The notes below the pieces were generated by a model. It ran no database searches and was not told where the DNA came from. It saw nothing but the letters and a program-made list of their open reading frames with translations. The position numbers and the translations under genes were made by a program. DNA of 63,165 bases, counting the filler, from Collodictyon triciliatum (taxonomy: Eukaryota): NCBI GenBank assembly GCA_043381765.1. It is 4 parts of 4 records of this genome, joined end to end, with 100 filler letters (N's around TTAATTAATTAA, not from the genome) between each part and the next. Parts side by side here need not be neighbours in the genome. Positions count along the whole stretch, not along the records: positions 1 to 20,304 come from JBHJMP010001244.1; positions 20,405 to 40,678 come from JBHJMP010001245.1; 2 more parts are not named here. One strand, 5' to 3'. This document shows positions 5,970 to 31,200 of the stretch, in pieces (position 1 is the first letter of the stretch; each line of letters opens with the position of its first letter).

Positions 5970-6038
5970 AGCGCGTTCAGAAATCTTTTTTTTTTTTTTT
6001 TCCCTTTATTCGATTCAAAGAGCGCGTTCAGAAATCTT
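5970..6038 (-). mobile_element. Micro-retroposon copy 1 with target-site duplication
   Basis: AGCGCGTTCAGAAATCTT at 5970-5987 and 6021-6038 flanks an insert that reads CTTTGAATCGAATAAAGGG-poly(A) on the minus strand. Confidence 0.85.
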
Positions 6039-6823
6039 ATTCGATCCACAACGCCAGATGTCCTACAACCCAAAATACTCTAGAGAGTCATCTGTTTTGA
6101 ACACACAGTCAACCAGACTCCTCGGTCACCTGCATAACAAACTTTTTATCTTTGACTTCTCCCCTTTGATGTCATCACAGGTATTTCTTATATGCGGCTG
6201 CTCTTAACCATGTGCGCCACTCACCCCTTGTCTGAGTCAACTCTCTTGAACTTTGAATCCAATACCGAAAAGAAAAAAAGAGAGAAAGAAAAAGCCAAAT
6301 CCAAAAACAATACGCAGAACATGGGATAAAATAAAATATGATTCAATGAGAGAAGCAATTTATTTATTTTTATAAAAGAAAAAAGAAAAGGTGAAATCGT
6401 TCGAAGGGTTTTCGACTTAAAGCTACCGGGTACTTTTCTTATATTATTTCGGTGCTTGCCGTGTCGGTTAATTTTTTCAAACATGTGTTTTTTCTTCTTA
6501 TTTGTAATATCAACGTCTTTTTGGACAATATCACATCCATTACTTATCTCTTCTTTGATCTTATATAAAAGAGAATCCATAGAGTCTAATGTTTTTTTTT
6601 TTTTTTTGACTTTTGATGTATCATCTCCGGGTCACTTGTTGTCTATAACCGACTCAGGATCAATCGAACCAGACGTCCTCATAGTCAGGTCCAACCCGTC
6701 AACATAATCACACATCCGCCTCTCCATAAATCCATATAAATCAGGTTGGTTCTCCATCCACCCTTCCATATCCGACCCAGTTACTTTTTGGGCCTTGTTA
6801 CGAAACAGCTAATTATCGTGCGG

Positions 6824-28205: not shown

Positions 28206-28224
28206 AAACTGCCATTACATTAGA

Positions 28225-31200
28225 ATGAAAAGAAGTGACGGAGACAGTCTTGTGCTGGATCCGTTTCCAAAGAGATCGCGACCCGCGGATTATTCAAAGT
28301 ACCCGATCGGCTCCATCGTGCGTGTTATCTGCGCCAACTTTGTCACGTACGACTACTGCGACTGTGAACCGGCCCCAGGTCTGAACGTAGTTGTTGGCCC
28401 CAACGGCTCTGGGAAGAGTACAATCATATCGGCAATATGCTTGGGACTTGCAGGAAAGCACAAGGTATGTATTACAAGAAAAACTAGACCGTTGCGACCT
28501 AACATGCTATTACAAACATACGACTCTCTCTTACATGACAATAGAGTCAAATAATTAACGAAAAGGGAATACACAACCAAAGAGAGAATCATGATATGCG
28601 AGGTTGAAGCAAAAACCGAAGCCAGTCTTTTTCTAGTCTAATTGGAATTAAAGATTAGACAAAGATTATATTCTCAAATAAAAAAAAGGACTAGAATTTC
28701 AATGATTTTGATTTATCAAAAAATTAAATATCATGTACACCAACGCAAAGTTGTTGGACAAAGGGGATGGAATTAGTACCTTCATCAAACATGGAAAAGA
28801 CTTTGCAGACATCAAAATACATTTGCACAAGGGAGATAATAGAGTGCTAGTGATTCATCGAAGGATCGAGTCGGATAACAAAACCTTATGGAAATTAGAT
28901 GGTGACATAACAATCCGCTCATATAATTTATTTTAAAAGATAATTACATGAAGCTTCTCTTGCTCTAATACATGAGTTGTTTTAATACTCATGAGAACCA
29001 AAAACACTCTCTTAGATCGAAGTGTCCAAGAAAAGAAAGTAATTGATGAAATAAGGAGATATAACATACAATTGGACAATTTGTGCCAGTTCCTACCACA
29101 AGAAAGGGTCAGTTGTCCATCACTTAGCATTTCAAGAATTTTTTTTATATAAAAAGACAAATTTCACAAATAAAGTTGGTTATACAATATAAATTCAACT
29201 TATTTTGGATATGAACGCCTGTATATATTTCCCGAGTCAAAATCAATTTCTTTTCATCATCTGAATCAAAGGTCGTTGAGTTTGCAAGGATGGACCCTAT
29301 GACCTTGCTCCATCAAACAGAGGCTGCTATTCATGGGGAAGCTTCCTTAAGAGAAAAACAAGCCCTTATTATGCGAGAGAAGGATATTAAAAAGAGGAAA
29401 GAAGTATCAACATTTTTCTTTTACAATTAGTATATACAACTAACCTTCTTTTTTTTTTTTTTAAGTATTCATATTTTTCCATCCCCCATGTAGTCCCACA
29501 CATTATCTGTCGGAAAACTTGATAAGTTAAAAAAAGAGCAAGCACAAGCTGAAACAGAAGCGGCCCGATTTCGTGAAAAACAAGAAATTCTGAAACATGT
29601 ATATTTTCTTAAATAAATTCAGCCCTTGCCTTACATCGTCGCACTAAATTACTTCCCCTCCTCCTCCTCCTCCTCCTCCTCCTCCTCCTCCTCCTTCTCC
29701 CCACGCACACACACATACATTCACCCATCCTTCAAAAACGTGCCAATGTATTTACAATATCATTATAATTAGATTGAGTGGATATCGTCTTTCAAAGTTA
29801 TAACAGAATGCAATAATATGGAGGCGGAGTTTAGAGAAGCCCAGGGAGACATTAAAGAACGAGAGGTACGAACATCAGACTATATTTTTTAACTATCTTG
29901 TTTCTGCAATTGGAATATGTTTATCCATAAGCATAACTGTAGTATTCATCATATAACTATCGACCACTTACAAAAATGATAATCGAATACTCATTCAATA
30001 ATTATGAACAGACATTATTGAAGAAATCCGAGGCAGAATTAGCTCCCCGAGAAAAAGATCTAAGGTACTATTTCCTTTTTTTTTTTTAAAAAAAAATTAT
30101 ATAGATTGATGCCATCCTCGCTACACTTTGAATCGAATAAAGGAAAAAAAATATAGATTGATGCCACGATGAATCACTGTAATCTTACAATCATAATCTC
30201 ACCTACTTGAATATATCAGTGTCTTCCTGACATAGGCGTCTGATTTATACAATTTTTGATAAGCTCTTTAATTTTCATCTTGAAACTCATACTTAAGATA
30301 CCAAATAAATTCAGGGCTCTGAAACAAGAGCAAGAAGAAATCAAAACAAAAAAGATAAACGAAGAGAGAAAATTAGGAGATTTGGAGAGGTGCCGTAGAC
30401 AAATTTTTGAGAAAATACAAAATCTGGTAGATCCTTTCATTTTCACCATGTGTAAATTAACATATAACTTTATCCCGTCCGCTTTTGTATGGCGAGGTAT
30501 TTTAACTACATTTATACCAAAGATTGAAGAGGCCGTATCGCTTGCTGCCAAAGTAGATGCTTACAAGAAAGATATGGCTGAGCAAGGAACTAAGAAGAAA
30601 AGGCTGGAGCAAGAAATAAGAGAACTCAAGCTCCAGAAGGCAAACTCAGAATCTATAGAATCCATCTTGGAGAAAACTGTAATTTTGACATTCGATATGC
30701 ATACATTTTTTTAGTGGACCAAATCCCTTTAATATTTTGGATGTTCAATATATGAAATCTGACTACATAAATCATATTTACTAGAAAAGATTAAGGTTGG
30801 ACGAGCGCAGTGTGAACAATAGTGTATCTGCCTTACAAAATCAGCAACAAGATATCAACCGAGAGCTCGAATCAAACAAGAGGATGCTATCACAATTAAA
30901 AGAAAAGTAAGACCTTGTGAAAATCCATTACATCAAAGTGCGCTATATGGTACTGGTAACATCTCTAATACTATTTTCCATTCAGATTAGAAAAGCTAAA
31001 TAACAAGAAGACGATGATGATCAATCAACTTCGTTCGACTGACCCAAACTGCTATCGCGCATATGAATGGATTCAACAAAACCGACAGCGTTTTCATGGG
31101 AATGTGTATGGGCCTGTTTTCGCTGAAGTATAGTTTTTTTTAATACCATAACATCCAAAACACATACTCTTTTCCTTGTACTTATATATTTTATACAGCA

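Follow-up and report, generated by a model that had tools for sequence, protein, structure and literature searches.

The 63,165-nucleotide (nt) stretch of Collodictyon triciliatum DNA analysed here (assembly GCA_043381765.1; parts of four records joined by filler, hereafter the window) contains very short A-tailed inserts bracketed by direct repeats, which almost certainly originated by target-primed reverse transcription (TPRT) from a long interspersed nuclear element (LINE) of the L1 group. These stubs are dead-on-arrival LINE 3' tips. Across the genome they end most often 18-20 nt from the 3' end of the LINE, and this mode is real: it is not the edge of a more numerous class of even shorter inserts. 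The process is a known one, while the truncation profile is unusually sharp and extreme. Taken as a whole, ordinary TPRT by an L1-group LINE, aborted early at a stall set by the template, is a moderately probable account of it.

Inserts in the window

A search of the window for the terminal 18 nt of the element (the core), with up to three mismatches allowed, returned six matches against 0.20 expected in shuffled sequence. Four are exact (6003-6020, 12942-12959 and 13495-13512 on the minus strand, 30126-30143 on the plus strand), one has two mismatches (28162-28179, plus strand), and the sixth is degenerate (841-858). The inserts and their duplications are:

5970..5987 (-): insert 1 duplication, downstream copy, 18 bp, perfect direct repeat
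5988..6020 (-): LINE 3'-tip insert 1, 18-nt core followed by G and an A14 tail
6021..6038 (-): insert 1 duplication, upstream copy, 18 bp, perfect direct repeat
12912..12925 (-): insert 2 duplication, downstream copy, 14 bp, perfect direct repeat
12926..12961 (-): LINE 3'-tip insert 2, ~20 nt of element and an A-rich tail
12962..12975 (-): insert 2 duplication, upstream copy, 14 bp, perfect direct repeat
13495..13661 (-): 5'-truncated LINE copy of 167 nt, last codons of open reading frame 2 (ORF2) and ~97-nt 3' untranslated region (UTR)
28147..28160 (+): insert 4 duplication, upstream copy, 14 bp, perfect direct repeat
28161..28191 (+): LINE 3'-tip insert 4, slightly diverged, core with two mismatches and tail
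28192..28205 (+): insert 4 duplication, downstream copy, 14 bp, perfect direct repeat
30099..30114 (+): insert 5 duplication, upstream copy, 16 bp, perfect direct repeat
30115..30150 (+): LINE 3'-tip insert 5, 28 nt of element, one extra base and an A7 tail
30151..30166 (+): insert 5 duplication, downstream copy, 16 bp, perfect direct repeat
841..858 (+): candidate older stub, uncertain, three mismatches and a 9-bp remnant repeat

An earlier reading made from the sequence alone (the sequence-only reading) had reported five core copies, as inserts of 31-36 nt, with perfect duplications of 18, 14, 14 and 16 bp around four of them. The five copies and the four duplications are confirmed, and a comparable non-simple direct repeat of at least 14 bp surrounds only 4 of 3000 random window positions. 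The copy at 13495, however, is the 167-nt LINE fragment and not a stub, and the size range applies to whole inserts only: the element-derived parts of the four short ones measure ~18, 20, 18 and 28 nt, and the remainder is tail plus a few untemplated bases. The tail of the 167-nt copy merges into a (CAAAA)n repeat, and a search for a duplication around it found none. Many longer copies at other places in the genome match it at 91-94%, and at position 13661, where the 167-nt copy stops, contigs of three other sequencing runs carry on into LINE sequence.

Inserts 2 and 5 lie in sense orientation, the former directly past an apparent GT splice donor and the latter inside an apparent GT..AG intron, both introns being predicted from sequence; insert 4 sits immediately upstream of an exon for an SMC-type ATPase. 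A stub-like 13-mer with two mismatches (6036-6048, minus strand) overlaps the upstream duplication of insert 1, which may thus have landed in an older stub. No tRNA or Rfam RNA was found in the window.

The source LINE

Extension of the copies in the 5' direction, which the sequence-only reading had proposed, followed natural copies past the ~97-nt 3' UTR to ORF2, which encodes an APE endonuclease, a reverse transcriptase (RT) domain that carries a YADD motif, and a zinc-binding end; the LINE is ~6 kb in total. Matches to PF03372 (Exo_endo_phos, E=3e-12), PF00078 (RVT_1, E=3e-17) and PF13966 (zf-RVT, E=2e-7) come from three different natural copies. The closest database proteins are L1-type ORF2 at 21-37% identity, some of them named Transposon TX1 protein. 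By this ORF2 architecture the element is assigned to the L1-group LINEs; instead of the sequence-specific target of the Tx1 subgroup, just a T/A preference was found among 90 insertion sites. In one locus (L121), the ~2 kb upstream of ORF2, where an L1-group LINE would carry ORF1, recurs at other loci but is split into short frames.

No intact ORF2 was found among the fetched copies. The RT regions form a star-like tree, in which 28 of 29 copies are 3.6-7.7% away from the most similar other copy, the smallest difference of any pair being 3.6%; called duplications carry mismatches at 27 of 1488 bases, an underestimate. The suggestion that the element was recently active is not borne out by these broken and diverged coding copies; they point to past activity, although the assembly may have merged young copies into one another.

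More than half of the scorable copies share a deletion that removes 703-706 nt from the stretch of ORF2 linking the RT thumb to the zinc-binding end (15 deleted versus 10 complete among 29 copies), apparently in frame in only ~4 and without GT-AG ends. Deleted and complete forms are inseparable on the poorly resolved tree (8 changes versus 8.1 when shuffled), and there are no diagnostic sites. The deletion was considered as a cause of low processivity and set aside, as it showed no tie to the stubs. It was seen at loci L039, L063, L066, L068, L071-L073, L076, L078-L080, L086, L087 and L089. Elsewhere, a stub with its own duplication lies inside an older copy of the LINE endonuclease region (L223:360-400).

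Anatomy and abundance of the inserts

All fetched DNA contained 224 seed sites, of which 90 were called with a duplication under strict rules; the remainder includes long copies, contig ends and decayed repeats. The duplication measures 15-18 bp in 74 of the 90 called copies, begins with A in 80 and is preceded by T in 61, so that the targets resemble T/A nicks at dispersed AT-rich sites. Tails are mostly 5-9 nt. Among 76 short copies, 29 have microhomology at the 5' junction, 25 are blunt there and 22 carry extra bases. Duplication sizes, T/A preference and junction classes together make up the usual L1-type pattern, as described in the accessible text of PMC2912911. With the LINE as master, these features bear out the proposal that the inserts are extremely 5'-truncated copies made by a non-LTR element through TPRT. 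In two copies, L147 (38 nt) and L194 (32 nt), the 5' ~20 nt are not of the element and yet lie within the duplication; they would be explained by a template switch or 5' transduction.

The host assembly comprises 75.4 Mb in 14,576 contigs. Exact copies of the 18-mer occur at 1 per 41 kb, or ~1 per 17 kb after calibration (see below), which is sparser than the one per 13 kb that the sequence-only reading gave for its stretch, and the calibrated estimate for the whole genome is ~4,400 inserts. Both strands carry the 18-mer about equally (930/900), and the reversed-sequence control gave 0. The element is present in four of four public metagenome runs from four studies and in one Joint Genome Institute (JGI) contig. 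An adapter or vector artefact, the refutation that the sequence-only reading had itself named, is ruled out, since the core terminates an element that encodes an RT, occurs on both strands and is found in several runs. A second JGI core match (L277) had no flanking LINE sequence or tail and was treated as chance.

Length distribution and the stop at 18-20 nt

Exact genome counts fall as the pattern is lengthened: 2573 for the last 11 nt with two tail letters (control 8), 2268 for 16 nt, 1830 for 18 nt, 650 for 21 nt and 587 for nt 10-26. Since each counted pattern is intact in 18 or 19 of 31 long copies, the fall is not explained by mutation. The calibrated loss per nt is 3.5% at nt 11-15, 10% at 16-17, 28% at 18-20 and 3% at 21-25, and ~63% of the copies that reach nt 18 end at 18-20. 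Direct inspection agrees with the counts: in the first 100 exact-core sites, 63 end at 18-20, 6 at 21-25, 17 at 26-37 and 14 further on (a contig end or gap interrupts five of the 14), and an ungapped call gives 77 of the 100 an element of no more than 30 nt. Duplications were called at 75 of these sites, ~4 of them spuriously, and at 0 of 22 seeds of the reversed control. The mode is the same in a sample anchored on only 11 nt (37 of 103 at 18-19), and the length between duplications, measured without reference to the element, also peaks at 18-19 (33 of 90). The copies do share an A-tailed 3' end, as first described, but their 5' ends, instead of being freely variable, are concentrated at 18-20 nt.

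A steady rise in numbers towards zero length was considered and rejected, for stops at 11-15 are fewer than at 18-20 and a scan of 885 kb, a sample enriched for the motif, contained one pure A-run insert. That scan found 55 duplication-flanked A-tailed inserts, of which 49 bear the motif (the count including the pure A-run), 2 are degenerate stubs, 2 belong to a sister LINE, and 2 are probably noise. The pure A-run insert, the sole one in the 885 kb, is an A12 with a 17-bp duplication (L157, near 7522). A helical periodicity of stops at ~10, 19 and 30 nt is not claimed, the copies being too few and the second group broad (26-37 nt).

Random truncation combined with selection or assembly bias would also leave an excess of short copies, if selection had removed long ones from a gene-dense genome or the assembly had merged them. 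Long copies are indeed located on short contigs and two window copies lie within apparent introns, but such bias can yield neither the ninefold drop in stop rate from nt 18-20 to nt 21-25 nor the smaller number of copies at 11-15 nt than at 18-20. As the explanation of the profile it is barely credible, while it probably adds to the overall shortness.

The continuous series of copy lengths, from 9 nt to kilobases, runs on into the LINE 3' UTR and ORF2 and speaks against a separate minimal retroposon, which the sequence-only reading had offered as an option. In a related form of this idea, an independent 18-nt 'nano-SINE' (SINE, short interspersed nuclear element) would have its own source gene and be mobilised by the LINE. 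The very sharp modal 5' end would suit it, as would the roughly tenfold excess of stubs over RT-bearing pieces (1830 exact cores versus at least 162 first-look candidates). However, the 18-mer does not differ from the end of the LINE itself and is too small for a promoter, the 5' ends range over 9-37 nt while tracking LINE sequence, and LINE-type letters occupy nt 17-18 in 47 of 51 inserts of 17-23 nt. Where a SINE has an RNA polymerase III (Pol III) head and a defined 5' end distinct from the LINE, the stubs are pure LINE 3' UTR with spread 5' ends. A nano-SINE is therefore very improbable.

Two internal comparisons

A SINE-like element of ~290 nt shares just its last 16 nt with the LINE, and three copies, ~80% identical to each other, have a common 5' start:

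L224:1293-1589, SINE-like copy
L154:7041-7333, SINE-like copy
L225:1303-1584, SINE-like copy

Its head contains A-box-like and B-box-like motifs; an Rfam search of the three loci gave no match at E up to 1, and no tRNA match was found. From these features it is probably the SINE partner of the LINE. Its copies are also mostly short, with 112 sites for its 18-mer and 63 for its 21-mer; 20 of the 49 sites without the 21-mer were inspected, and 5 were longer variants. Stops near 18-20 are estimated at ~33%, some by chance, versus 63% for the LINE (Fisher p=2e-5).

This partner bears on a second explanation, in which the LINE RNA is shortened 5' to 3', by host decay or small-RNA cleavage, as far as a patch protected by ORF2p, and the remaining ~18-nt A-tailed RNA is copied whole. 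The stub would then be the footprint of a stringent 3' recognition motif. That the partner shares exactly the last 16 nt, near the modal length, is in keeping with such trimming, and so are the possibility of drawing the 18-mer as a 5-bp hairpin and the rarity of motif-less duplication-flanked A-tailed inserts in the motif-enriched 885-kb scan. RNA interference cutting at the start of the Drosophila suffix element, reported in the accessible text of PMC1868783, provides a precedent. On the other hand, the terminal 18-mer is predicted to be unfolded on its own (0 kcal/mol), the partner with the same motif stops there about half as often, and 37 of 100 copies extend further, with the second broad group at 26-37 nt. 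Trimming before copying is accordingly rated as unlikely. A terminal hairpin as a stable structure is unsupported by folding prediction.

The second comparison is a sister L1-group LINE whose ORF2 end is homologous (35% identity over 118 aa) and whose 3' UTR is different (loci L273, L274 and L270, that is G000:C10000, C8265 and C843). It is abundant, with 1134 first-look candidates, and since some copies are 97-100% alike over 100-230 nt it may be younger. From 25 of its seeds in loci not chosen for it, 16 have a duplication; 15 of these 16 are no longer than 60 nt, and 7 end at 41-49 nt.

The sister LINE is informative about a fixed-length checkpoint, in which synthesis would abort after ~25-27 nt of cDNA (tail plus element) on any template, for example at a change from initiation to elongation. 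The sum of element and tail does peak at 24-27 nt in 38 of 65 short copies, and the LINE and its SINE-like partner both cluster near 18-20. Against this, the sister LINE peaks at 41-49 nt, and element and tail lengths are not anti-correlated (rho -0.09, p=0.46 overall; rho -0.19, p=0.17 within 16-21 nt), the 5' end being sharper (standard deviation 1.2) than the tail (2.3). The length-versus-tail test is weakened in that tails may have changed after insertion; with both lines of evidence considered, a checkpoint of this kind is quite improbable. Together, the two comparisons indicate that early abortion is common to related elements and that the modal stop depends on the element.

Proposed mechanism

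In the account by ordinary TPRT with a template-set stall, the ORF2 endonuclease would nick AT-rich DNA at a T/A step and a short A-tail would prime, as target and tail anatomy suggest, while a second nick ~15-18 bp away would create the observed duplication. Copying in this genome mostly ceases before it has gone beyond 60 nt; the resulting cDNA end is attached by blunt joining, through microhomology or with a few added bases. The position of the stop would depend on the 3'-terminal part of the template RNA: within the last ~45 nt, secondary structure or a bound protein would arrest the RT, and the halted cDNA would be captured there by second-strand synthesis or host end-joining. Published models, in the accessible text of the sources, allow such a stall and capture: in a model of L1 truncation, the top strand is nicked while the first strand is being made, and the copy is truncated when synthesis switches too early to the second strand (PMC7617806), and loss of Ku70 or Artemis lengthens LINE inserts, non-homologous end-joining factors shortening them (PMC2666801).

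When the predicted folding of 22 natural LINE 3' ends is averaged, nt 1-7 lie opposite 38-44 and an inner helix joins nt 21-24 to 33-36; the stop falls directly before this inner helix. For the sister LINE the predicted helix spans nt 39-43, so that in both elements helices begin near the mode (pairing 0.4-0.7).

Several points weigh against this account. The predicted folds are weak and do not surpass those of shuffled sequence (z 0.4 to 1.3 for the LINE), which leaves the coincidence of fold and stop only a lead, and the predicted helices cover so much of the region that their nearness to the modes could be chance. The SINE-like element differs from the LINE upstream of nt 16 and yet clusters at 17-21 nt, and an effect of length or footprint fits this as well. 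The calibration is based on 31 best-hit long copies. Many RT matches lie on short contigs, and long copies are under-counted in the fragmented assembly, which inflates the share of stubs but not the cliff between 18-20 and 21-25. Finally, no contig bridging an empty allele (a single target copy) was found in the four public runs, and JGI metagenomes gave no match.

Relation to known systems

Truncated human L1 copies are typically hundreds of bases or more in length, whereas here most copies are below 40 nt, with the sharp 18-20 nt mode and tails mostly of 5-9 nt. In other respects the two agree: in the accessible text of PMC7617806 and PMC2912911, 5'-truncated human L1 insertions share the APE endonuclease, RT, C-terminal zinc-binding domain and A-tail, as well as the T/A-type target, variable duplications, and blunt, microhomology or extra-base 5' junctions. 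The Tx1-group LINEs have the same ORF2 architecture; the insertions here differ in lying at dispersed AT-rich sites with no specific target.

SINE partners with an L1-type tail are rare, with 3 among more than 800 L1-clade families in the accessible text of PMC3747384. Stringent-type pairs described there (maize ZmSINE2/3; Chlamydomonas SINEX-3_CR/L1-1_CR) likewise consist of a SINE-like element with the LINE 3' end and an A-tail, and the present LINE has this trait of a 3' tail shared with a partner SINE (the ~290-nt element, last 16 nt). The shared tail is only 16 nt here versus ~80 nt in Chlamydomonas (PMC3747384), there is no well-supported stem-loop, and a tRNA origin of the head is suggested by A/B-box-like motifs only. 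The Drosophila suffix, in the accessible text of PMC1868783, is similarly a separate short retroelement identical to a LINE 3' end and without a Pol III promoter, but it is SINE-sized, has a short ORF and is transcribed, whereas the stubs are ~18 nt of UTR. No paper on an ~18-nt modal class of LINE inserts was among those listed in a search of the accessible literature.

Other observations

The host is intron-rich, and window genes include WD40, RING, NHL, SMC-type and UAA-transporter genes. A 929-aa stop-free frame at 2766-5555 (plus strand) comprises a pentapeptide-like stretch followed by ~12 near-identical WD40 repeats and is intronless over 2.8 kb within the intron-rich region. At 52144-52671 (minus strand) and in adjacent exons, a gene divided by introns encodes a glucodextranase C-terminal domain (PF09985, E=6e-11), a family known mainly from prokaryotes.

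Outside the window, a multi-copy decayed Fanzor1-like element was found at L154:4517-6300 (minus strand; G000:C203), with related pieces in L129, L136, L046, L060 and L225. A fragment matches Parasitella parasitica Fanzor1 (E=5e-12) and also Fanzor1 of Spizellomyces and Guillardia. Several of these copies hold LINE pieces, stubs or the SINE-like element, at differing positions.

Implications

The cause of 5' truncation of LINEs is still argued, with premature second-strand synthesis, host end-joining and RNA damage as candidates. In this genome, the stops of thousands of natural events fall within a span of 3 nt, and the sister LINE and the SINE-like element serve as internal comparisons, so that a single ORF2p and a small set of templates would suffice to test the truncation question. 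For annotation, the ~4,400 inserts are mostly too short for the usual repeat finders, and they bring AATAAA into introns.

It is possible, though only tentatively proposed, that the ~18-nt stub corresponds to the minimal RNA signal needed by an L1-group ORF2p, with copying cut right behind it. This reading draws on the SINE-like partner, with its Pol III-like head and stub-sized 16-nt tail, and on L147 and L194 with their ~20 non-element bases. If it is true, the Collodictyon genome would hold thousands of portable cassettes of recognition motif, AATAAA and A-tail, and any transcript ending in such a cassette would become mobile, showing how SINEs gain LINE tails.

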